Below, one piece after another: positions 161 through 11,276 of a stretch of 13,313 bases of DNA. The notes beneath the pieces are model-generated. The model did not search any database. It saw nothing but the letters and a program-made list of their open reading frames with translations, and had not been told where the DNA came from. Positions within the stretch are counted from its first letter, which is position 1; each line of letters opens with the position of its first letter. The position numbers and the translations under genes were made by a program. This DNA comes from a virus (Duplodnaviria; Heunggongvirae; Uroviricota; Caudoviricetes), in the IMG/VR virus record IMGVR_UViG_2703718794_000005; one strand, 5' to 3'.

Positions 161-230
161 TGTTCCAGCTTGTTTCACGTTGTAGCCCTTTGTGCAACGA
201 TCGGTGTAGTTAATGGTGTAGTTAATTGTG
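161..230. repeat. attL: left copy of island-bounding direct repeat (perfect core cggtgtagttaatggtgtagt at 202-222)
   Basis: Exact 21-mer recurs at 11747-11767 in the same orientation; imperfect similarity (ttgttcca..gtttca..gtgca.cga) extends ~40 bp upstream in both copies; int begins 6 bp after the core. Confidence 0.75.
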
Positions 231-1478
231 ATGACCGGATTCAAAATTATGAGCAGAGCACTTAACAAACTGAGCGATACACAGCTGAGGAAAATCAACG
301 GCACACCCGCCCAAAAAACAGCCTTTCTTAATGACGGTGGAAACCTGAGCGTCAGGCATTCAACCAGTGGCCTTTTAACCTGGTATTTCACTTACAGGGC
401 CGGAACGGGAAGGGGGGCACCACCGGAACGCATTAAGCTGGGAAATTATCCTGATCTGAGCCTGAAATCAGCCAGGGAAAAAGCCGCCCAGTGTCGCGCA
501 TGGCTGGCAGAGGGGAAAAATCCACGTCATGAAATGAATTACACCGTACAGGAAGCGTTAAAGCCGGTAACGGTTGGCGATGCGCTCACCTACTGGCTTG
601 AGTCGTACGCAAAGGAAAACCGTGTGGATTATGACCCACTGAAAAAGCGGCTAAATAATCACGTAATACAGCACATTGGCCCTATGCCGCTGGATAAATG
701 CGAGCTACGGCACTGGCTGGCCTGTTTTGATCGGGTGGCAAAGAAAGCCCCTGTTTCCGCCGGGTTCCTGCTACAGACATGCAAGCAGGCGCTTAAGTTC
801 TGCAGGAAGCGGCGCTATGCAATCAGCAACGTTCTTGATGATATGAGTGTGGCGGACGTTGGGAAAAAACCGGATATAAGTGAGCGTGTCTTAAGTAACA
901 AAGAACTTGGCGAATTATTGCAGGCACTGGACAAAAAAATATTTTCCCCTTACTACGTCGCACTAATCCGCCTCCTGATTGTTTTCGGATGCCGGACAGT
1001 AGAACTGAGGTTATCGGAGATCGGCGAGTGGGATTTTACCGAAATGCTCTGGACCGTTCCGAAGGAGCACAGCAAAACGAAGGTAGCCATATTCCGGCCC
1101 ATACCGGAAGCGATACTGCCGTTCGTCACGCAGCTGGTGGAGCAGAACAGGCACACGGGCTTATTGCTGGGGGAAGTGAAACAGGAAACCAGCGTATCGC
1201 AGTACGGCAGATTGGTGCACAGGAGGCTTAAACACCCTCACTGGTCACTGCATGACATCCGGCGCACCTTTACAACCATGCTGAACGATTTAGGCGTTGA
1301 TCCTCACGTCGTGGAGCAGCTTACAGGCCACCAGATGCCAGGAATGCAACGCGTGTACAACCATTCCCGCTATATTGATGCGAAACGCAATGCGCTTGAT
1401 ATGTGGGTGGAGCGGTTGGAGATACTGGCGGGAACACATGAAAACGTAACCACGCTACCAGTAACCAGAATAAAATAA
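228..1478 (+). CDS. int: Tyrosine recombinase/integrase, P4 family (N-terminal arm-binding domain type)
   Basis: 416-aa ORF beginning at GTG 228; N-terminus (LSDTQLRK..FLNDGGNLSVR..WYFTYR) resembles P4-type integrase arm-binding domain; sits next to attL. True start may be ATG 231 or ATG 249 (MSRALNKLSD...); no clear SD for any of them. Confidence 0.9.
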   Translation: MMTGFKIMSRALNKLSDTQLRKINGTPAQKTAFLNDGGNLSVRHSTSGLLTWYFTYRAGTGRGAPPERIKLGNYPDLSLKSAREKAAQCRAWLAEGKNPRHEMNYTVQEALKPVTVGDALTYWLESYAKENRVDYDPLKKRLNNHVIQHIGPMPLDKCELRHWLACFDRVAKKAPVSAGFLLQTCKQALKFCRKRRYAISNVLDDMSVADVGKKPDISERVLSNKELGELLQALDKKIFSPYYVALIRLLIVFGCRTVELRLSEIGEWDFTEMLWTVPKEHSKTKVAIFRPIPEAILPFVTQLVEQNRHTGLLLGEVKQETSVSQYGRLVHRRLKHPHWSLHDIRRTFTTMLNDLGVDPHVVEQLTGHQMPGMQRVYNHSRYIDAKRNALDMWVERLEILAGTHENVTTLPVTRIK

Positions 1479-1852: not shown

Positions 1853-2041
1853 GTGTTAAGCACTGATCGGTTTATACGTGAAAAAGAATGCGAAAAGCTA
1901 ACAGGCCTTAGCCGCTCATGCCGCTACCGCCTGGAAAAGGCCGGACAATTCCCATCACGTCGTAAACTTGGTGGGCGTTCTGTTGGCTGGTCTTTATCTG
2001 AGGTTTTGGCCTGGAAGGATAGCTGCAAGGCAGTTCACTAA
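1853..2041 (+). CDS. alpA: AlpA/Vis-family small HTH regulator (prophage regulatory protein / excision-directionality candidate)
   Basis: 62-aa ORF with GTG start 9 nt after aaaggggg SD; motif RKLGGRSVGWSLSEVLAW typical of AlpA-type MerR-like HTH; positioned directly downstream of int as in P4-like elements. Confidence 0.8.
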   Translation: MLSTDRFIREKECEKLTGLSRSCRYRLEKAGQFPSRRKLGGRSVGWSLSEVLAWKDSCKAVH

Positions 2042-2216: not shown

Positions 2217-2284
2217 GAACAATTAACCTGCTGCGCCTTATGTGTATGTGATCCCAAACATAAGCACGGGAATGATAGCCGCTA

Positions 2285-2488
2285 TCAGGCTGGTGGGCAA
2301 TTACCTTGCTTGTTGGGGCCGTATTGTGCTGCCATTTTCATCCGTTCAGAACGTGAATATTTTTTTAGAAACTCATCAAGGACAAAAGCGCATGGAGCGA
2401 ATCTTTCTGATTCATGCTCGAGCGCCATATTTTCGTGCTCTCTGTTCGTTTTTTGCGATGGTGTATTGGTTGATTCTTTATTGGTCAT
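2285..2488 (-). CDS. Hypothetical small protein (67 aa), paralog of 2946-3173
   Basis: ORF with charged, non-repetitive composition; C-terminal block RFAPCAFVLDEFLKKYSRS resembles EKFALEDFVDKYPRR of the 75-aa ORF; start codon preceded by conserved leader element R1a. Confidence 0.5.
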   Translation of the reverse strand: MTNKESTNTPSQKTNREHENMALEHESERFAPCAFVLDEFLKKYSRSERMKMAAQYGPNKQGNCPPA

Positions 2489-2496
2489 TGTGTGTA

Positions 2497-2540
2497 CCTG
2501 TAAAGCAATGCGCCGGAGTTCCTCACGCCACGGCGCTGAT
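2497..2540 (-). promoter_or_regulatory. Conserved 44-nt intercistronic hairpin element R1a
   Basis: cctgtaaagcaatgcgccggagttcctcacgccacggcgctgat; 41/44 identical to R1b (3182-3225) in my by-eye alignment; contains inverted repeat gcgccg..cggcgc; lies between a minus-strand stop codon and the next minus-strand start. Confidence 0.5.
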
Positions 2541-2545
2541 GTTTT

Positions 2546-2650
2546 TTATTCTTTGGGTTCAATACCGCGTTGCTGTAATTCTTTTCGGATTATTCGTTTT
2601 ATCCAAGCAGCTAAAGAGTCATCACCGTCTTGTTGTTGTGCTTTTTCCAT
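2546..2650 (-). CDS. Possible 34-aa ORF (MEKAQQQDGDDSLAAWIKRIIRKELQQRGIEPKE), truncated paralog of the C-terminus of the 3231-3419 protein
   Basis: ATG (revcomp of 2648-2650) preceded by gggaaaag; C-terminus resembles ..AALKREVEYRQRRKAKESE of the 62-aa ORF; not in supplied ORF track (below size cut-off). Confidence 0.25.
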   Translation of the reverse strand: MEKAQQQDGDDSLAAWIKRIIRKELQQRGIEPKE

Positions 2651-2718
2651 CTTTTCCCGTAAGTCAGGATCTAAACGGAACTGGAAAGGAGGATTACCAC
2701 GCCTTTCATTCTTGTGTG

Positions 2719-2768
2719 TTGACACGTCAATTACACCCCATATAATGTGTTTATGTGTATATACACAT
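2719..2768 (+). promoter_or_regulatory. Consensus sigma70 promoter (TTGACA 2719-2724, 16-bp spacer, TATAAT 2741-2746) with 16-bp perfect palindrome ATGTGTATATACACAT (2753-2768) over the predicted +1
   Basis: Read directly from sequence; both hexamers match consensus 6/6; palindrome immediately downstream is operator-like. Confidence 0.6.
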
Positions 2769-2793
2769 TACACACAACTAGCACAAAAAACAA

Positions 2794-2926
2794 CGCCCCG
2801 CAGTGATGGGAACACATACGGGGCGTCTAACCAAACCATTAATTGAGGTAACGATTATGGTTATAAAAGAGCATAGCTTACTCTTTATACACACACAAAC
2901 GCCCCGGAAACGGAATAATCCGTTTC
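2794..2926 (+). ncRNA. Candidate structured leader / small RNA (R2a) transcribed from the 2719-2746 promoter
   Basis: Hairpin cgccccg(2794-2800)..cggggcg(2819-2825), then tctaaccaa, SD+ATGGTT (2857), tatacacacacaaac; all shared with R2b (3543-3650); second hairpin gaaacgga/tccgtttc at 2907-2926. The long plus-strand ORF through here has junk composition, so the transcript is probably non-coding or encodes only a short peptide. Confidence 0.3.
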
Positions 2927-2945
2927 ATAGTTCGGTTTTGTGCAC

Positions 2946-3173
2946 TCATCCTGGCGGTCGGTTTTTGCCGGATTTAAGCCGCCGTGGGTATTTATCGACA
3001 AAATCTTCAAGGGCAAATTTTTCTGGTGGCACTAAGCGCGGCGCTGGTGGTGGTATTTTTGTTCTGGTTAGTTCTTCCTCAAGTCTGGCGCAGGCTTCTG
3101 ACTGCCTTTGCCGGATGATTTCATCATCTTGCGTTTGCGTGTCTTGTATTGGTGATAGTGTGTTGTTGGTCAT
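2946..3173 (-). CDS. Hypothetical small protein (75 aa), paralog of 2285-2488
   Basis: ORF start MTNN.. mirrors MTNK.. of the paralog; both preceded by the R1 element; shared C-terminal motif; protein-like composition. Confidence 0.55.
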   Translation of the reverse strand: MTNNTLSPIQDTQTQDDEIIRQRQSEACARLEEELTRTKIPPPAPRLVPPEKFALEDFVDKYPRRLKSGKNRPPG

Positions 3174-3181
3174 GATACTGC

Positions 3182-3225
3182 CCTGTAAAGCAATGCGCCG
3201 TAGTACCTCACACCACGGCGCTGAT
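3182..3225 (-). promoter_or_regulatory. Conserved 44-nt intercistronic hairpin element R1b
   Basis: cctgtaaagcaatgcgccgtagtacctcacaccacggcgctgat; on the minus-strand RNA forms a ~9-bp stem GCGCCGUGG/CUACGGCGC with GAGG in the loop; sits between stop of 3231-3419 and start of 2946-3173. Confidence 0.5.
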
Positions 3226-3230
3226 AGTGA

Positions 3231-3419
3231 TTATTCTGATTCTTTGGCCTTGCGACGCTGGCGGTATTCAACTTCCCGCTTTAATGCAGCTGTAACAAAC
3301 TGCCCTGTACTTTCGCCGGGCATTTTTACCGCCTCAACATTGTTCATAACTTCATGTGGAACCCTTGCCGCAACTGTTTGTGATTTTGCGTTTACTGCTT
3401 TTGTCGCCATGTTGAGCAC
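3231..3419 (-). CDS. Small DNA-binding regulator candidate (62 aa; possible ribbon-helix-helix type repressor)
   Basis: GTG start 4 nt after gagggg SD (alternative ATG 9 nt downstream); segment QTVAARVPHEVMNNVEAVK..GQFVTAALKREVE fits a beta-strand/helix/helix pattern; gene diverges from an operator array. Confidence 0.55.
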   Translation of the reverse strand: MLNMATKAVNAKSQTVAARVPHEVMNNVEAVKMPGESTGQFVTAALKREVEYRQRRKAKESE

Positions 3420-3460
3420 CCCTCATAAAAAACAAATGCAGTATGCAGGAAAAAAAATAA

Positions 3461-3537
3461 GTGTTCAACACTTGACGTGTTTAACACCTCGATTTAAATT
3501 GGTGTTCAACACCTTATTTAGGCAAGGTGTTGAAACG
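3461..3537. promoter_or_regulatory. Operator array: GTGTTcAACAC (3461-3471), GTGTTtAACAC (3477-3487), GTGTTcAACAC (3502-3512), GTGTTgAAAC (3527-3536), with divergent promoters
   Basis: Three perfect 5+1+5 palindromes plus a half-site variant, read directly; -35-like TTGACG (3472-3477) between O1 and O2 and -10-like TAAATT (3495-3500) for rightward transcription; leftward TTGAAC/CATACT candidate overlapping O1. Confidence 0.6.
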
Positions 3538-3542
3538 ACGAA

Positions 3543-3650
3543 ACCCCGCACTGTAGGAGCAGTAACGGGGCTTCTAACCAACAACGTAAACGAGGAGCCG
3601 TTATGGTTGCCGTAAATCATATACCACACCTTGTACACACACAAACTGCC
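3543..3650 (+). promoter_or_regulatory. Conserved structured leader R2b of the rightward operon
   Basis: Hairpin ccccg(3544-3548)..cgggg(3566-3570) with AGGAG in loop, tctaaccaa, SD gaggag + ATGGTT at 3603, tgtacacacacaaac; patchwise identical to R2a. Confidence 0.4.
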
Positions 3651-3675
3651 TTTGTGTGGCGTTTTCTGGCCCTGA

Positions 3676-4005
3676 GTGCCGGAGAATCTCAAATCATCCA
3701 CGTCACCGCCTGGACGGAACGCGAAGCGCGTAACCGTTGCCCGTCCGGTTGTGTTGCTGTATTTGCCGCCCGTATTCGTCAGGAGGTGCGCCATTATTAA
3801 TCTGTCACTTACTGACCTTAACCGCATTCAGTTTCGTGAGAAATTCACAGGGCAGCTACTGGTCAATGTGGATAAAGGTCGCGTGGTGTGTAATTACCAC
3901 TTACCAGATGAAGCAATTGTCGCCACAAGGGAATCATTACAGGAAATCACAAAACGTGCCGGAATGATTAACACGAATATTCAGGGGATGCTTTATGCAC
4001 AATAA
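3676..4005 (+). CDS. Hypothetical protein; start uncertain
   Basis: C-terminal two thirds (..LTDLNRIQFREKFTGQLLVNVDKGRVVCNYHLPDEAIVATRESLQEITKRAGM..) looks protein-like; N-terminal part from GTG 3676 is Pro/Arg-rich and overlaps alternative ORF 3603-3800 (65 aa, with SD and conserved ATGGTT start). A strong AGGAGG at 3780-3785 precedes an in-frame ATT (3793). Only one of the overlapping frames is likely translated. Confidence 0.4.
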   Translation: MPENLKSSTSPPGRNAKRVTVARPVVLLYLPPVFVRRCAIINLSLTDLNRIQFREKFTGQLLVNVDKGRVVCNYHLPDEAIVATRESLQEITKRAGMINTNIQGMLYAQ

Positions 4006-4689: not shown

Positions 4690-4989
4690 ATGAAACTTAA
4701 ATATTCTGGCTTAACTGCCAGTGGCAACACTCACCCTAAATTTACGCGCGGTGATATTTACCGCGACCAGTACGGCGGCACGGTAATGATTAAGGGCGTG
4801 GCGGGACGGTGCGTAACTTACCGCCGTGAAGGTTACGAATATGATTGCGTGATGCCTGTTTATCAGTTCCGGCGTGATTTTTCTCTGGTACAGACCGCGC
4901 CGCATAACGTGCCCACCAGCAACGCCAGGGCACGGGCAAACATCCAGAAGCTGAAAACCATGATTAACGGATTCAGGGGTAAAAAATGA
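4690..4989 (+). CDS. Hypothetical protein (99 aa), translationally coupled to the replication ATPase
   Basis: Stop overlaps start of next gene (ATGA at 4986-4989); protein-like composition. Confidence 0.6.
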   Translation: MKLKYSGLTASGNTHPKFTRGDIYRDQYGGTVMIKGVAGRCVTYRREGYEYDCVMPVYQFRRDFSLVQTAPHNVPTSNARARANIQKLKTMINGFRGKK

Positions 4990-6395
4990 AACTGGCACTG
5001 AACGTAAAACGATTACCGAAAGATAAATACACCGATGCGATTATTTTTGCGGGTATTGATGCTCACTCATTCGCAGAGCATTACATCATTGCACAGGCCA
5101 AAAAAGCAGGCGATCCAGTCCCTCCCGTTTATCTGGGGCGTTATCAGTTAAGCGAACTGGATAACCTCCAGATTGTTGATGATGGGCGATACAGGGCGAC
5201 GGTGATACGCGCCGGAAATATTGAAGAGCCGCAGCTGTTAACCATCGCCACGAAACTGGCGATCGCCGGAGTCCAGGAGGCGCGGCTACTTTCTGAAAAT
5301 TTCGAATTGCTGGAGGAATGGAGCGACCAGCTTCCACGGCTTAGGGAGGCATGGGAACGCGGGGAAAGCCTGGTCATGAAAAAAATTCCCCAGCGAAAAA
5401 CCACGCTACCGATGAGCGTTGGATCTACCGGATACGACACACAGCTTGATTACGTGGTAAAGGGGATTATTCCGGCATCGTCGCTTTGCAGCATATACGG
5501 GGCGAGCGGTTCCTATAAATCATTCCTTGCCGGATCGTGGGCGTGTCACGTTTCCACGGGCCGCCAGTGGGGAGGCCGCAGGGTGGCGCATGGCGCTGTT
5601 CTCTATGTGGTTGGTGAAGGCGGTATCGGCGTTCCGCGTCGTGTAAAAGCCTGGGAGGTTGTGCACGGTGAGCAGGTGAAAAATCTGTATCTGGTAAACC
5701 GTCCCATCTTTCCGGCGGTCCCGCTTGATGTTGATGAAATGGTTATCGCTGCCAGTCAGGTGGAGAGGGAAACGGGTAAACCTGTACGCATGATTATTCT
5801 GGATACGCTGGCGCGTTGCTTTGGTGGGAATGATGAAAATGATTCCCGTGATATGGGGGCGTTTATCCGTGGTTGTGACGAACTGAAACGGCGCACAGGG
5901 GCCACGGTGCTGGTGGTTCACCATTCCGGCAAGGATGAGACGAAAGGCGCGCGCGGTTCCAGTGCATTTCGTGCTTCGCTGGATGCTGAATACCGGATAC
6001 GCAGAGAGGACGCAGGCAGCGAAGCGCTGGTTATCTCATGCACCAAAATGAAGGACGCGGAGGAACTCAAAGAAGCCGCATATGACTTACGCGTGGTGGA
6101 GCTTTTTACCGACGCTGACGGGGAGTTAATCACGTCGCTGGTGGTGGTGGATAAGCCGCGCCCTCCCGTTGAACTGGAGCGCATCGAGGAGGCAGGGAAC
6201 AAGACGGAGAATCACGCCGCGCTATGGCAGTGCATCAGAACACGAACAGCACACGGGGAGGCGTGCACTATCGCCCTTCTCCGCGACGATATGAAAAAGC
6301 TGGGGTATGAGATGAAGCACTTCCGGCGCTGGCTGTACAAGCTGGAAAATGATGGCGTAATCGTTATTGATGGTGATGACGTGCGCCCGCTGTAA
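4986..6395 (+). CDS. Replication initiator / helicase-type RecA-fold ATPase (RepA/AAA_25-like)
   Basis: 469 aa; Walker A-like GASGSYKS, Walker B-like MIILDTLARC.GGNDEND, VLVVHHSGKD motif typical of RepA-like/DnaB-family ATPases; followed immediately by an iteron array. No primase (TOPRIM/zinc) motif noticed. Confidence 0.85.
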   Translation: MKLALNVKRLPKDKYTDAIIFAGIDAHSFAEHYIIAQAKKAGDPVPPVYLGRYQLSELDNLQIVDDGRYRATVIRAGNIEEPQLLTIATKLAIAGVQEARLLSENFELLEEWSDQLPRLREAWERGESLVMKKIPQRKTTLPMSVGSTGYDTQLDYVVKGIIPASSLCSIYGASGSYKSFLAGSWACHVSTGRQWGGRRVAHGAVLYVVGEGGIGVPRRVKAWEVVHGEQVKNLYLVNRPIFPAVPLDVDEMVIAASQVERETGKPVRMIILDTLARCFGGNDENDSRDMGAFIRGCDELKRRTGATVLVVHHSGKDETKGARGSSAFRASLDAEYRIRREDAGSEALVISCTKMKDAEELKEAAYDLRVVELFTDADGELITSLVVVDKPRPPVELERIEEAGNKTENHAALWQCIRTRTAHGEACTIALLRDDMKKLGYEMKHFRRWLYKLENDGVIVIDGDDVRPL

Positions 6396-7523: not shown

Positions 7524-7600
7524 CATATGAGGTTTTTTTGGTGCACTGACACACATGATCGGGATAATCATTTCATAATTTGCAACACAACTCAACATCA

Positions 7601-7661
7601 TTGCACAAAATGCAATCATGATTATAATCATAACTGGATGAACATCCAGTTATGATTTTTT
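7601..7661 (+). promoter_or_regulatory. Candidate promoter of the head operon (TTGCAC 7601-7606, 16 bp, TATAAT 7623-7628) embedded in nested palindromes (7618-7631 and 7628-7655) followed by T6
   Basis: Palindrome atgattataatcat covers the -10; perfect 13-bp-arm palindrome tcataactggatg-aa-catccagttatga spans predicted +1; SD agagga 10 nt before ATG 7685. Confidence 0.45.
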
Positions 7662-7684
7662 AAGTCAAAGAGGAATTTCTGACT

Positions 7685-7891
7685 ATGGCAGAAGAGAAAA
7701 AAGGCGGGGTGACCGTGTACATAAGCCCCGACATCGTGGAGGCGCTCAAGGAACGCCACCAGCAGAACGTAAAAGCAGGCATCGCGGCAGGACTTGATCC
7801 GCTGGCGATGGTTGAGCCGTCAACAGGCTGGCAGGTACGCGCCTATTTACGCGCGGCGCTGGGCATGAATCAGACGCATGGAGGTGAATAA
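7685..7891 (+). CDS. Hypothetical protein (68 aa), translationally coupled to major capsid gene
   Basis: SD agagga; stop TAA overlaps ATG of next gene (TAATG, 7889-7893). Confidence 0.55.
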   Translation: MAEEKKGGVTVYISPDIVEALKERHQQNVKAGIAAGLDPLAMVEPSTGWQVRAYLRAALGMNQTHGGE

Positions 7892-8946
7892 TGGCAGGCA
7901 AAGCAACGGCACTTAACACTAACCAGCTTTTCGCGTACCTGAATCGCGGGGATATTGCGGAATTTAAATTCAGTCCGCTGTTTACCACGCTGTTTTTCCC
8001 GAACGTGGCGACATTCAACACCCAAAACATCATGCTGGACACCCTGGACATTGAAGAGGTTACGATGTCGGCGTTTTGTTCGCCTATGGTGGGTAGTCAG
8101 GTCCAGCGCGATAAAGGGTACGAAACCAGCACGATTAAACCTGGATACATGAAGCCGAAGCACGAAATCGATCCAACGAAAACCATCATGCGCATGGCCG
8201 GAGAAGATCCGGCACAGCTTAACGACCCTACCTATCGCCGTATGCGCCTGATTACTGGCAATATGCGCCGCCAGGTAAACGCCATAAAAGCGCGCGTGGA
8301 ATGGCTGGCGGTAAATGCGGTAACGACCGGAAAAAACATCATTGAGGGCGAAGGCATAGAGCGCTATGAAATCGACTGGAAGATACCGGAAAAAAACATC
8401 ATAGAGCAGGCCAAAGGCCGTAAATGGTCAGAGCAGGACAAAGAAACTCACGATCCAATCTATGATATTGAGCTTTATGCGGATCAGGGCAATTGCCCCG
8501 CAAACGTCATGATTATGGGCGCTGAGGTATGGCGCACGTTACGCAGCTTTAAAAAATTCCGCGAACTGTACGATCTTTCCCGTGGTTCAGAATCCGCCGC
8601 AGAACTGGCCTGCAAAAACCTGGGCGAAGTGGTGAGCTTTAAAGGCTATCTGGGCGATATTGCCCTTATCGTCTATTCCGGCAAATACACTGACAGCGAC
8701 GGCACCGAAAAATATTTCCTTGAGCCTGATTTGCTGGTCCTGGGCAACACCAACAATAAAGGGCTGGTGGCCTATGGTGCGATTATGGAACAGGAAGCGG
8801 TAAGAACGGGCGCAACGCAAAACATGTACTACCCGAAAAACTGGATTGAGGACGGCGATCCGGCGATTGAGTACGTGCAGACACACAGCGCACCGCAGCC
8901 GGTACCGGCAGATATTCGCAAATTTGTTACCGTCAAAATTGGTTAA
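7891..8946 (+). CDS. Major capsid protein, lambda gpE family
   Basis: 351 aa; blocks FKFSPLF..LFF, KPGYMKPKHE, DPTYRRMRLI, HDPIYDIELYA, RSFKKF, RGSESAAE, LGEVVSFKGYLGDIALIVYSGKY, FLEPDLLVLGNT, YPKNWIEDGDPA, SAP..AD..KFVTV align with lambda E protein as I recall it. Confidence 0.9.
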   Translation: MAGKATALNTNQLFAYLNRGDIAEFKFSPLFTTLFFPNVATFNTQNIMLDTLDIEEVTMSAFCSPMVGSQVQRDKGYETSTIKPGYMKPKHEIDPTKTIMRMAGEDPAQLNDPTYRRMRLITGNMRRQVNAIKARVEWLAVNAVTTGKNIIEGEGIERYEIDWKIPEKNIIEQAKGRKWSEQDKETHDPIYDIELYADQGNCPANVMIMGAEVWRTLRSFKKFRELYDLSRGSESAAELACKNLGEVVSFKGYLGDIALIVYSGKYTDSDGTEKYFLEPDLLVLGNTNNKGLVAYGAIMEQEAVRTGATQNMYYPKNWIEDGDPAIEYVQTHSAPQPVPADIRKFVTVKIG

Positions 8947-8957
8947 CGGGGGATTCT

Positions 8958-9293
8958 ATGGACACTCCATACATTGAGTTATTCGCAGGCAGTCAGCAGG
9001 TCGCCACGACGCTGGTACATTTTGCCGCTGATGCTGGCGTTATTCAGGAATTTACCCCGCTGATGCTGGCGGACAATGGCGAGTTTAAGCCGTGGGATGG
9101 TCAGGAATCTGGCAAGGCTGTTTATCTGACTTCGTACCCCGTGGACACGTCGACGCAGAAATCAGCACAGTGTTACAAGACGGGGATATTTAATATCGCT
9201 GCCGTAAACTGGCCTGAGAGCGCCGACACTGACGCGAAAAAATGCGCTGCCTTTGCGGGGTCTGGCGTATCCGTTCAGCCGCTGGCCCGATAA
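8958..9293 (+). CDS. Head decoration protein, lambda gpD-like
   Basis: 111 aa; TPLMLAD..WDG..YKTGIF..WPESADTDAKKCAAFAGSGVS matches remembered lambda D ([36 protein letters not shown]). Gene order E then D is reversed relative to lambda. Confidence 0.8.
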   Translation: MDTPYIELFAGSQQVATTLVHFAADAGVIQEFTPLMLADNGEFKPWDGQESGKAVYLTSYPVDTSTQKSAQCYKTGIFNIAAVNWPESADTDAKKCAAFAGSGVSVQPLAR

Positions 9294-9305: not shown

Positions 9306-9719
9306 ATGGCAACGAATGAAAGCATCATGACGCTACCGCTGGCGAGTAAATTTAAAGCCGAAGCGCGGGCAATGGCTGACAGAGGGTTATCAACCTACGA
9401 GGCCATATATCAACTTAACAAACTGGAAGAGCAGGACAAGCCGCGCGCTGATGCGATTATGGCGCTTGATGAATCTGGCGACTATCAGCCGCTGTTACGT
9501 GCAATGGCAAACGTGCCTTGTATCGATGTTGGTACGGCTAAAAGCATCCTTAGCATGACCATAGAGCAGGAACGTCCGAAGGTTGCGCCGGAGCTTACCG
9601 CAGCCTTTGAAAACTTTATGGACATGCACAGCCCGCAAGCCGTATCAGCTGGCATGGCATACGATGGCAGAAACCCGGGCGATGACGGCGACATCGATCG
9701 CATACTGAAAACCATCTGA
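9306..9719 (+). CDS. Hypothetical protein (137 aa) within head module
   Basis: ORF with SD gggggaacg; acidic C-terminus; no recognisable homolog from memory. Confidence 0.6.
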   Translation: MATNESIMTLPLASKFKAEARAMADRGLSTYEAIYQLNKLEEQDKPRADAIMALDESGDYQPLLRAMANVPCIDVGTAKSILSMTIEQERPKVAPELTAAFENFMDMHSPQAVSAGMAYDGRNPGDDGDIDRILKTI

Positions 9720-9724
9720 GACAG

Positions 9725-9747
9725 GCCGGAGAAATCCGGCTTTTTTT
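9725..9747 (+). terminator. Intrinsic terminator (gccgga-gaaa-tccggc + T7)
   Basis: 6-bp GC stem, GAAA tetraloop, 7 T; 6 nt after stop of 9306-9719. Confidence 0.75.
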
Positions 9748-9830
9748 ACGGGTCCTTTCCGGCATATGGACCCGTTACGGGGCGGCGACCTCGCAGTTTT
9801 TCGCTATTTATGAGCCTTTTTCGGGTGCTG
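9748..9830 (+). other. cos site 1, lambda-type: cosQ-like ACGGGTCCTTTCCGG (9748-9762), cosN GGGCGGCGACCT (9780-9791), partial cosB-like (TTTTCGCTATTTATGA)
   Basis: Near-identical to the remembered lambda cos junction ACGGGTCCTTTCCGGTGATCCGACAGGTTACG|GGGCGGCGACCT|CGCGGGTTTTCGCTATTTATGAAAATTTTCCGG; precedes the Nu1-like gene as in lambda. Confidence 0.8.
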
Positions 9831-9924
9831 GTGGTGGTTTTGTTGTTCGCTCTATCTCTATGAATAAAAAGGGAAAGATAAAAACAATACACCAACCTGA
9901 AACATTACTTAAGTGGGGATATTG

Positions 9925-10467
9925 ATGAAATCGCACCTGATGAACAAAAAAAACATGGCGCAAAGCTGCCGTGTAAGTGCGACAGCGTTCGACAAGTGGC
10001 GAGTGACTCCCGTTGAACGTAAAGGACGCGAGGCTTTTTACGATGTTGCCAGCGTGATAGACAATCGGGTAAGCAATGCAATTAACCAGGTTACAAACGA
10101 CAAAGGCGAGATTGATGATGATGAACTCTTACGAGTCAGGATCAGATTACTGACCGCCCAGGCGGAGGCGCAGGAACTTAAAAACGAGCGCGATCGCGGT
10201 GACGTAATTGATACAGAGTTTTGCATGTACGCGCTTTCAAAACTGGCGAGCCAGATTTCTTCAATCATGGACAGCCTACCGCTTACGATGCAAAGGAGCT
10301 TCCCACAGATTACCCCCGCCATGCTGGATGGGCTTAAAAGGGAAGTGGTTAAAGCCTGTAATGCCAGTGCCAGAGTTGCCGACAACCTTCCGCAGATACT
10401 GGCTGATTACTTGAAAGAAACTACCGGAAACGTACCGGAAAAGTTGCTACAGAAGAAACGTGAGTAA
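9925..10467 (+). CDS. Small terminase subunit, lambda Nu1-like (TerS; could act as a packaging-redirecting TerS homolog)
   Basis: Central block LTAQAEAQELKNERDRGDVIDTEFCMYALSKLASQISSIMDSLPLTMQRSFPQ..LKREVVKACN aligns with lambda Nu1 (LTRAQADAQELKNARDSAEVVETAFCTFVLSRIAGEIASILDGLPLSVQRRFPE..LKRDIIKAMN). ATG 9925 has SD gtgggga; ORF track starts at GTG 9913; ATG 9940 also possible. Confidence 0.85.
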   Translation: MKSHLMNKKNMAQSCRVSATAFDKWRVTPVERKGREAFYDVASVIDNRVSNAINQVTNDKGEIDDDELLRVRIRLLTAQAEAQELKNERDRGDVIDTEFCMYALSKLASQISSIMDSLPLTMQRSFPQITPAMLDGLKREVVKACNASARVADNLPQILADYLKETTGNVPEKLLQKKRE

Positions 10468-10495
10468 CCGCAGCACAATTATTGAACAAAAATGA

Positions 10496-10557
10496 GAAAG
10501 GATCTGATAATGGCATTTTCTGGCTAAAATGCCTCGTGTCAGATCCTTTCTTTTTTT
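10496..10557 (+). terminator. Strong intrinsic terminator after terS (12-bp outer stem gaaaggatctga/tcagatcctttc enclosing an 8-bp inner hairpin, then T7)
   Basis: Read directly; on the minus strand the same inverted repeat corresponds in position to the lambda cosB-region inverted repeat (GAAAGGAAACGACAG..CTGTCGTTTCCTTTC). Confidence 0.7.
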
Positions 10558-10700
10558 AATGTTTTCATTGTTAAACAGTCTGTTACAGAGAAGAAGAACG
10601 GATCTGACTTTTGCCGGAAAATTTTCATAAACAGATAAAAACTGCGAGGTCGCCGCCCCGTAACGGGCCATAATTCCAGGAAGGACCCGACGACACCAGA
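10558..10700 (-). other. cos site 2, lambda-type, inverted relative to cos1: cosN GGGCGGCGACCT on minus strand (10647-10658), cosQ-like GGGTCCTTCCTGG, extended cosB-like region
   Basis: Reverse complement reads ..GGGTCCTTCCTGGAATTATGGCCCGTTACGGGGCGGCGACCTCGCAGTTTTTATCTGTTTATGAAAATTTTCCGG..GTTCTTCTTC..AAAGAAAGGA.., matching remembered lambda left end; 31-bp stretch 10637-10667 is the exact reverse complement of 9771-9801. Confidence 0.75.
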
Positions 10701-10722: not shown

Positions 10723-11004
10723 ATGACAGAAGCCGAACTACTGCGATTAATCCGTCGCGTTGCCGGAATCAGCCAGCAGGCTGACGAACAGGCCACGCAG
10801 CCGGACAGCGTGACCGCCGAAAATTATGCGCGTGTGGTTGCTGAGGTGATGCGCCGTGATGGTATTGAGCTTAACGGCGTGGATATGCGCAACATACGAA
10901 CCAGAGTCCTTGAGTTGCTGGCATACCGTCGCCGCGTGGAGATGTATCGGGAGAAGGAGAAAATCACGTATCACTGGAAGAAGCCGGAGCGGTTACGGCG
11001 GTAA
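10723..11004 (+). CDS. Hypothetical protein (93 aa)
   Basis: ATG after SD gatgggggc; Arg-rich basic C-terminus; no homolog recognised. Confidence 0.55.
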   Translation: MTEAELLRLIRRVAGISQQADEQATQPDSVTAENYARVVAEVMRRDGIELNGVDMRNIRTRVLELLAYRRRVEMYREKEKITYHWKKPERLRR

Positions 11005-11018
11005 CTTGTTGATTAAAA

Positions 11019-11093
11019 GGCGGCTCAATTCTGAGCTGGGTAGCTGACGGCGGTAACTGTTTGATATTCCCGATAACGCAAAATTGCGCTGGC
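11019..11093 (+). repeat. ~75-bp direct repeat, copy 1 (contains near-palindrome ctcaattctgag and palindrome gcgcaaaattgcgc)
   Basis: Closely matches 11206-11276 by eye; partial third copy at 10995-11015. Confidence 0.5.
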
Positions 11094-11205
11094 TACATCC
11101 CTCACATCTGAGGACTGTTAACCAGCAGGCCGGAATATATTCACAAACTACGAAATTTTCGTAGTTTAATTACTCGCCAGTTTATCGTTAACTAGTTGAT
11201 ATTTT

Positions 11206-11276
11206 CGGAAACCTCAATTTGAGGAAGTCGGCGCGGTAACTGTTTTATATTCCCGATAGCGCAAAAATGCGCGGTC
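11206..11276 (+). repeat. ~75-bp direct repeat, copy 2
   Basis: cggaaacctcaatttgaggaagtcggcgcggtaactgttttatattcccgatagcgcaaaaatgcgcggtc aligned to copy 1 by eye. Confidence 0.5.

Follow-up and report, generated by a model that had tools for sequence, protein, structure and literature searches.

The closest described relative of the locus analysed here is EcCICFT073, an Escherichia coli phage-inducible chromosomal island (PICI) in which a pair of cos sites, cos1 and cos2, flanks the gene rppA. Within its family, helper-dependent induction, packaging and transfer have been demonstrated for EcCICFT073 only (PMC6092414). Its cos1 was functional in deletion and cosmid assays, and deletion of this site reduced transfer (PMC6092414, PMC6739421); deletion of both sites abolished transfer, an effect worse than that of the cos1 deletion alone (PMC6092414). 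The two sites were also swapped experimentally (PMC6092414, PMC6739421). Each site, when cloned, rendered a plasmid transferable, cos1 in an RppA-dependent manner, and RppA bound to the phage small terminase (TerS) redirects packaging to cos1 via its cosB (PMC6092414, PMC6739421). Rpp proteins are 135–153 aa long, comprise winged-helix and dimerisation domains, lack a C-terminus that binds the large terminase (TerL) and depend on phage TerS (PMC6739421). Why such an island carries two cos sites was left open by both studies (PMC6092414, PMC6739421). Here, we analysed the corresponding module of a 13,313-nt stretch of DNA (IMG/VR record IMGVR_UViG_2703718794_000005; hereafter the window), in which a full-length small terminase gene, terS, occupies the place of rppA.

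Judged from its sequence, the window is a cos-type PICI of the EcCICFT073/O-island-51 family, to which O-island 51 of O157:H7 belongs. It shares with EcCICFT073 the integration site beside phoQ, the genes for a capsid E-like, a D-like, a 137-aa and a 93-aa flanking protein, near-identical cosQ-cosN arms, and an inverted cos pair around one specificity gene, which in EcCICFT073 reads cos1 > rppA < cos2. It differs in that the gene encodes a 180-aa Nu1-family TerS instead of RppA, and in that both cosB1 and cosB2 are of other types. In the CFT073 locus, cosN was found at 7558–7569 (plus strand) and 8297–8308 (minus strand) around rppA at 7659–8093; these coordinates correspond to the published cos1 and cos2 and match the sequences in Figure S1A of PMC6739421. 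The preliminary description of the window, made from its letters alone, knew of no such symmetric double-cos arrangement for lambda or P4; novelty is not supported, since the same inverted pair at the same site has been tested experimentally in this sibling (PMC6092414, PMC6739421). The arrangement is thus already known and validated, and it is its geometry and purpose that are not discussed there: the words inverted and orientation are not applied to the cos pair in either paper or in a review (PMC9026076), and a literature search for inverted or invertible cos pairs in satellites yielded nothing beyond PMC6092414 and PMC6739421. Among Staphylococcus aureus pathogenicity islands (SaPIs), those of the SaPI1/SaPIbov1 type have a TerS gene of their own, those of the SaPIbov5 type bear the helper cos, and two putative cos sites were reported for SaPIbov4 (PMC6092414). 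The module of the window appears to unite both strategies, a private small terminase and mimicry of a helper cos, whereas SaPIs are Gram-positive elements of unrelated sequence for which the texts consulted describe neither this combination nor the inverted geometry.

The module spans positions 9745–10698 and is laid out as cosQ-cosN-cosB > terS < cosB-cosN-cosQ, with the following features:

9723–9748, plus strand: intrinsic-terminator-like hairpin and T run (terminator scan: 8-pair stem at 9723–9742, then a T tail), directly upstream of cosQ1.
9745–9813, plus strand: conserved arm of cos1, with cosQ at 9750–9756, cosN at 9780–9791 and a proximal cgcagtttttcgctatttatga segment.
9814–9924, plus strand: cosB1, the presumed private cosB, with a GGTGGTGGTTTTGTTGTT box at 9830–9847, its inverted partner ACACCAACC at 9889–9897 and then the terS ribosome-binding site.
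9925–10467, plus strand: terS, island small terminase of 180 aa (Pfam Phage_Nu1, E=2e-23; PHROG 57, E=8e-51).
10489–10646, minus strand: cosB2, with R1 at 10489–10507, a hairpin at 10512–10533, R2 at 10538–10557, an AT-rich spacer at 10558–10589, R3 at 10590–10608 and an I2-like segment at 10610–10646 (assigned from inverted repeats and the lambda register).
10647–10698, minus strand: conserved arm of cos2, with cosN at 10647–10658 and the cosQ-like GGGTCCTTCCTGG at 10676–10688; the identical arm is found in EcCICFT073 cos2.

The 12-mer GGGCGGCGACCT, exactly that of lambda cosN, occurs precisely twice in the window, at 9780–9791 on the plus strand and at 10647–10658 on the minus strand, and encloses an interior of 855 bp (9792–10646). 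Across 200 dinucleotide-preserving shuffles of the window, 0.07 matches to it were expected, and no shuffle contained two. Around the first copy, the 31-mer CCCGTTACGGGGCGGCGACCTCGCAGTTTTT at 9771–9801 is perfectly reverse-complemented at 10637–10667, each copy being unique in the window, and it lies within a wider inverted repeat of 76 nt with 82% identity (9749–9824 and 10614–10689). Both arms further carry the cosQ-like GGGTCCT 30 nt upstream of cosN, which is the lambda spacing (9750–9756, and 10682–10688 as the reverse complement). The cosN and cosQ of a lambdoid cos are therefore present at both sites, the cosQ being identical to that of lambda in sequence as well as in spacing. The cos1 arm is common to the window and EcCICFT073 cos1. 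Terminase cleavage and use in packaging are documented for the homologous EcCICFT073 arms alone (PMC6092414).

The protein encoded between the arms carries the features of a Nu1-family small terminase (a winged-helix N-terminus, an oligomerisation region in the centre and a TerL-binding segment at the C-terminus), a function predicted from the Pfam and PHROG matches and from its full-length alignment with lambda Nu1 and N15 gp1. The Phage_Nu1 match spans residues 37–152, and the alignment includes a TerL-binding-like C-terminal region, whose LPQILADYL resembles the TerL-binding ends of lambda, N15 and PhiR5_1. The closest phage protein by tblastn is N15 gp1 (44% identity); the recognition helix is nearly identical (SATAFDKW in the island TerS, SVQAFDKW in N15), and the N-terminal DNA-binding regions compare as VSATAFDKWRVTPVERKGREAFYDV and ISVQAFDKWGVQPVEKRGREVFFDV, respectively. 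An assignment as Rpp was rejected on the basis of the 180-aa length, the Nu1 match, the TerL-binding-like C-terminus and an identity to RppA of just 16%, RppA itself having no Nu1 match. When the island TerS was compared with PDB sequences, nothing useful came up, and neither RppC nor the lambda Nu1 domain was recovered. As a separate observation, the protein ends in a tail of about 12–13 aa, TTGNVPEKLLQKKRE (10420–10464, residues ~166–180), which the phage TerS of lambda, N15, the 21 type and the ML35 type all lack and which is common to islands with different TerS DNA-binding domains.

The cosB1 upstream of terS is of the matching kind. Its single N15-like box, with an inverted partner and predicted to bind TerS, can be aligned to both the R3 region of N15 and the N15-type cos2 of strain AREA_492: GGTGGTGGTTT lies at bp 51–61 from cosN, and the N15 R3 box GGTTGTTGTTT at bp 50–60. 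The box is kept in all islands with an N15-like TerS examined and is distinct from the RppA-type cosB1 (GGTGACACCACCACCAC). Resemblance to the N15 cos-gene 1 region thus lies in the TerS DNA-binding domain, closest to that of gp1, and in the GT-rich, N15-R3-like box at ~bp 51–61; the differences are that the island cosN is the lambda 12-mer while N15 has a variant cosN, that cosB1 has a second, inverted box, that the spacer to terS measures 146 bp against 89 bp in N15, and that no terL follows the island terS. A promoter scan gave only weak matches, within cosB2, and none upstream of terS. Because an N15-like TerS accompanies an N15-like box here, and a 21-type TerS accompanies 21-type R boxes in a second, independent case, the island MB06102, cos1 and its specificity gene behave as a cognate unit, and we infer that the island TerS would bind cosB1 and directly recruit helper TerL.

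The second site is of a different make. In cos2, the boxes R3, R2 and R1 lie at bp 53–69, 108–122 and 152–165 from cosN, compared with 53–70, 109–124 and 151–166 in lambda (distances counted by hand on the compared sequences), so that every element of the lambda order cosQ-cosN-I2-R3-I1-R2-R1 recurs in the same register, and TerS binding to the three boxes is predicted. The R3 box at bp 53–69 reads CAGATCCGTTCTTCTTC on the minus strand. A prophage of strain ML35 has exactly these R cores, TCAGATCC(G/T)TTCT, in the canonical order cos-terS-terL; this ML35-type cosB-terS was found in ~210 genomes. A difference from lambda and ML35 is that the stop codon of the convergent terS is met at ~bp 192 from cosN2: the phage terS starts at this distance (~bp 191; Nu1 in lambda), and the island cos2 has no terminase genes in its packaging direction. 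The preliminary description's two lambda-type cos sites in inverted orientation around a Nu1-like terS, with lambda-like R boxes and a hairpin at cos2 and divergence at cos1, were borne out by these comparisons; the site it had placed at 10558–10700 is real, with its left limit corrected to R1 at ~10489, 22 bp from the terS stop codon. A phage counterpart also exists for the cos2 of EcCICFT073, for which the original authors found no match to lambda, phi80 or phage 4 (PMC6739421): its cosB2 shares ~89% identity with a canonical cosB of an EDL933 prophage, located there ahead of a terS-like open reading frame.

We consider it probable that positions 9745–10698 constitute a PICI packaging module with a private cos1 and a phage-mimicking cos2, whose arms double as recombination sites. 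In such a module, the island TerS would read cosB1 and recruit the helper large terminase, so that packaging would start rightwards from cos1, while a helper of the ML35 class could use its own unmodified terminase on cos2 and package leftwards. With the island circular or concatemeric, a complete island genome would result from either start. Recombination between the cosQ-cosN arms would exchange cassettes and cosB2 modules between islands and would make the cassette flippable, either by homologous recombination within the 25–48-bp perfect core or through cleavage of both cosN and subsequent rejoining. The idea of dual helper compatibility raised in the preliminary description, taken as two terminase specificities, agrees with these comparisons: the two cosB regions differ in specificity, cos1 matching the island's own N15-like TerS and cos2 the cosB of a prophage class. 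A broader proposal, which we hold tentatively, is that the cassette carries two keys, a private cos and a faithful copy of a phage-class cos, and that terminase or arm recombination could flip and swap cassettes and cosB modules between islands, thereby continually re-pairing satellites with new helpers. If true, it would answer the published question of why PICIs carry two cos sites. A cassette of the TerS type further predicts a hijacking that needs the helper large terminase only, unlike that by Rpp. New with respect to the described islands are the full-length terS in the place of rpp, the phage-type copy at cos2 and the presence of the cassette in both orientations; the interest lies mostly in a testable answer to the two-cos question and in the natural flips.

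Across islands, the modules were found in the following combinations (specificity protein; cosB1; second site; islands):

N15-like TerS; cosB1 with GGTGGTGG box; cosB2 of CAGATCC type; window, O157 and O26.
N15-like TerS; cosB1 with GGTGGTGG box; cosB2 of 21/phage-4 type; SF-166 and PM4-5.
N15-like TerS; cosB1 with GGTGGTGG box; cos2 deleted; GIMC1410.
RppA; cosB1 with GGTGACACCACCACCAC; cosB2 of ATGTCCGG type; CFT073 and CU568-3.
RppA-like protein (146 aa); cosB1 with GGTGACACCACCACCAC; cosB2 of N15 type; AREA_492.
21-like TerS; cosB1 with 21-type R boxes; cosB2 of CAGATCC type; MB06102.

On these sequence comparisons, cosB1 is linked to the specificity gene, and cosB2 assorts independently among at least four real phage cosB classes. 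In MB06102, the recognition helix of the 194-aa TerS matches the CFT073 phage-4/21 type, in line with the 21-type R boxes of its cos1, and cosN is GGGCGGCAGACG on both arms (2489–2500 and about 3450). Three side observations were made on such islands. The MB06102 module adjoins an F4 fimbrial subunit gene. In O26:H11 strain 11368, cos1 has a point change within cosN (GGGCGGAGACCT, locus position 1075) and the cos2 12-mer is canonical; its two cohesive-end sequences would therefore differ. Some divergent TerS-type islands have a gap of 272–308 nt after terS with an inverted cos-like element, in which another putative cosN (CCACGGGGCGGGAGCATCGCGG, reverse strand) stands beside GGGTCCTCC.

The cassette also occurs inverted in nature. 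A query in which 9792–10646 was reversed between fixed flanks was searched in complete genomes, and five contained the flipped terS cassette as a single-piece match with 100% coverage. In one of them, 2013C-4282, the island likewise lies at phoQ and its TerS and 93-aa proteins are those of the window, with terS on the opposite strand. Its 855-bp interior is 100% identical to that of the window once reversed, and so is the right flank, while 26 of the 232 positions of the left flank differ (~11%; 9560–9791, left of cosN1). Since identity is complete rightwards of cos1 with the cassette reversed and the ~11% difference lies leftwards, the sequences place a recombination breakpoint between the two islands at the cos1 arm. 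In PM4-5, a cassette of the SF-166 type is flipped at a different chromosomal site. The same kind of query found the CFT073-type rppA cassette flipped in 15 genomes, against ~63 genomes with the island-type cosB2 of this class; the flipped interior of WP4-S17-ESBL-08 is 100% identical to CFT073. The crossover fell within the perfect core, which measures 25–48 nt depending on the island. These flips are compatible with homologous recombination between the arms and equally with cutting at both cosN and rejoining, because cuts at both sites would leave identical overhangs at the ends of the cassette, which could then rejoin either way. Chance and assembly artefacts were both ruled out as the source of the repeat by the occurrence of flipped forms in independent complete genomes and at two integration sites.

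Several observations weigh against a helper-serving role of cos2. In EcCICFT073, lambda and phi80 transferred the island more once cos2 was deleted, and RppA had no stimulating effect on this site (PMC6092414), from which it follows that a cos2 can be costly with non-matching helpers. The site is also dispensable: GIMC1410 bears a deletion from just past the terS stop codon to mid-cosN, with CCGC microhomology, through which cosB2 and half of cosN are gone. Of the IMG/VR loci with a TerS of this family, 69 could be scored: an inverted cos2 was present in 28, 31 had a gap of 20–76 nt after terS and no cos2 (10 of these kept a remnant of cosQ2 and half of cosN), and the remaining 10 had a longer gap without a canonical cosN. 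Moreover, the ML35-type cosB-terS was absent by megablast, which diverged relatives would escape, from O157, O26 and 2013C-4282 genomes with a CAGATCC-type cos2; these genomes matched only a conserved internal piece of the ML35-type terS. Co-residence of islands with a cos2-matching prophage is not supported, and the matching helpers may be infecting phages or diverged prophages beyond the reach of megablast.

These same data (the gain in EcCICFT073 transfer on cos2 deletion, the remnants in GIMC1410 and in the IMG/VR loci with a 76-nt gap, the many TerS-type islands without any cos2, and the lack of a matching resident prophage in O157 or O26) favour the main rival, namely that cos2 is a functionless by-product of island-helper recombination at a cos hot spot, neutral or mildly harmful and repeatedly lost. 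We nevertheless regard this explanation as improbable, given that cosQ, cosN and the full R3/R2/R1 set are intact in the lambda register across several unrelated cosB specificities, and that the arms are matched even where cosN differs, as in MB06102. Furthermore, cosmid assays showed the cloned cos2 to be functional, and losing both sites was more harmful than losing cos1 alone (PMC6092414). The arrangement is also found in hundreds of genomes; a match covering at least 80% of the window's module was obtained in 487 of 5426 complete E. coli genomes, and both cassette flanks lie within 1 kb of each other in 575 genomes.

A second rival takes the inverted pair as an invertible switch, which would control terS or rpp expression or determine which cos fires co-directionally with island transcription. 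The flipped cassettes between fixed flanks, with their 100% identical interiors (five terS and 15 rppA genomes), would fit such a device, as would the terminator directly upstream of cos1, given which the orientation of the cassette towards the operon could matter. Switches of the Hin/Gin/Fim type, however, have a dedicated invertase beside the invertible segment, and none was found in or beside this cassette: only terS lies inside, and the neighbouring genes contain no recombinase domain according to Pfam and PHROG. The flipped forms are also in the minority (five against ~487 for terS; 15 of ~63 for the CFT-type), all 69 scoreable IMG/VR loci are unflipped, and inversion is the expected passive outcome for an inverted repeat of 25–48 bp that is also cut by terminase. 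For lack of an invertase and given the small share of flipped forms, a dedicated switch is unlikely, and we give it very little weight. Least credible of all is a role as a functional molecule for the ~0.9-kb terS segment (~0.87 kb), the release of which by terminase cuts at both sites the preliminary description had raised: both cosN are indeed intact and 855 bp apart, but the fragment would have two identical, non-complementary 5'-GGGCGGCGACCT overhangs and so could not circularise, it is far below any capsid size limit and thus unpackageable, the remaining island DNA would be left without its packaging gene, and no such product was reported for EcCICFT073 (PMC6092414, PMC6739421). At most, such double cuts could play a part in the cassette inversions found in other genomes.

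Returning to the island as a whole, the window has 100% identity to an island in the chromosome of E. coli P15-385 (NZ_CP075627), which lies between roxA and phoQ and measures ~11 kb from one gene to the other. Besides the module, it encodes:

228–1478, plus strand: tyrosine integrase (Pfam Phage_integrase and Arm-DNA-bind_3; annotated as integrase in NZ_CP075627), at the left end beside roxA.
1853–2041, plus strand: AlpA-family activator (Pfam Phage_AlpA, E=5e-18).
4986–6395, plus strand: RepA-type replicative helicase (Pfam AAA_25, E=1e-43; annotated as RepA family helicase).
7891–8946, plus strand: lambda E-like major capsid gene (Pfam Phage_cap_E, E=1e-50), homolog of c1499 of EcCICFT073.
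8958–9293, plus strand: D-like decoration gene (Pfam HDPD, E=2e-17), homolog of c1500 of EcCICFT073.
9306–9719, plus strand: conserved island protein of 137 aa (PHROG 1999, E=8e-65), the fixed left flank of the cassette.
10723–11004, plus strand: conserved island protein of 93 aa (PHROG 1561, E=8e-57), the fixed right flank of the cassette.

AlpA is a hallmark of Gram-negative PICIs, and the integrase, AlpA, the RepA helicase, a single-stranded DNA-binding protein (SSB), the unidirectional genes and the ~10–15-kb size class are together those of a Gram-negative cos-type PICI. The virion-type genes are limited to the E-like and D-like ones, the full virion set being absent. The order of capsid-like and then decoration-like gene is the same in CFT073, and the islands are otherwise syntenic, except that EcCICFT073 has a primase-family protein (CFT073 locus 2241–3995) at the position of the RepA helicase. 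The family, represented by O-island 51 in O157:H7 and by EcCICFT073 in uropathogenic strains, is frequent in pathogenic E. coli, and its PICIs carry virulence regulators from strain to strain.

The 137-aa protein adjoins cos1 in every related EcCICFT073-type E. coli island fetched, and a scan of genome contigs with it as the query gave zero confirmed loci. Its similarity to a head maturation protease family is weak (E=1e-8) and concerns that family's C-terminal part, a region that corresponds to the Nu3 scaffold in lambda; taken with the E-like and D-like genes, a role in capsid assembly is hinted at. A further observation concerns strain CFT073, in which EcCICFT073 cos1 (7558) and the cos (44744) of its helper prophage 4, which is inserted at icd, point the same way with 37.2 kb between them, close to the smallest size that lambda packages. 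It is conceivable that phoPQ-purB-icd could be packaged in situ from cos to cos in CFT073; P15-385 has no prophage at icd. At the opposite side of the cassette, the 93-aa protein is kept downstream of cos2 in related islands. Towards the right end of the island, the stretch between this gene and phoQ contains direct repeats at 10982–11272 (families D1 and D2), which share the core CGGCGGTAACTnnTTGATATT in 3–4 copies with a spacing of ~50–190 nt, and these could be integrase arm-type sites or iterons.

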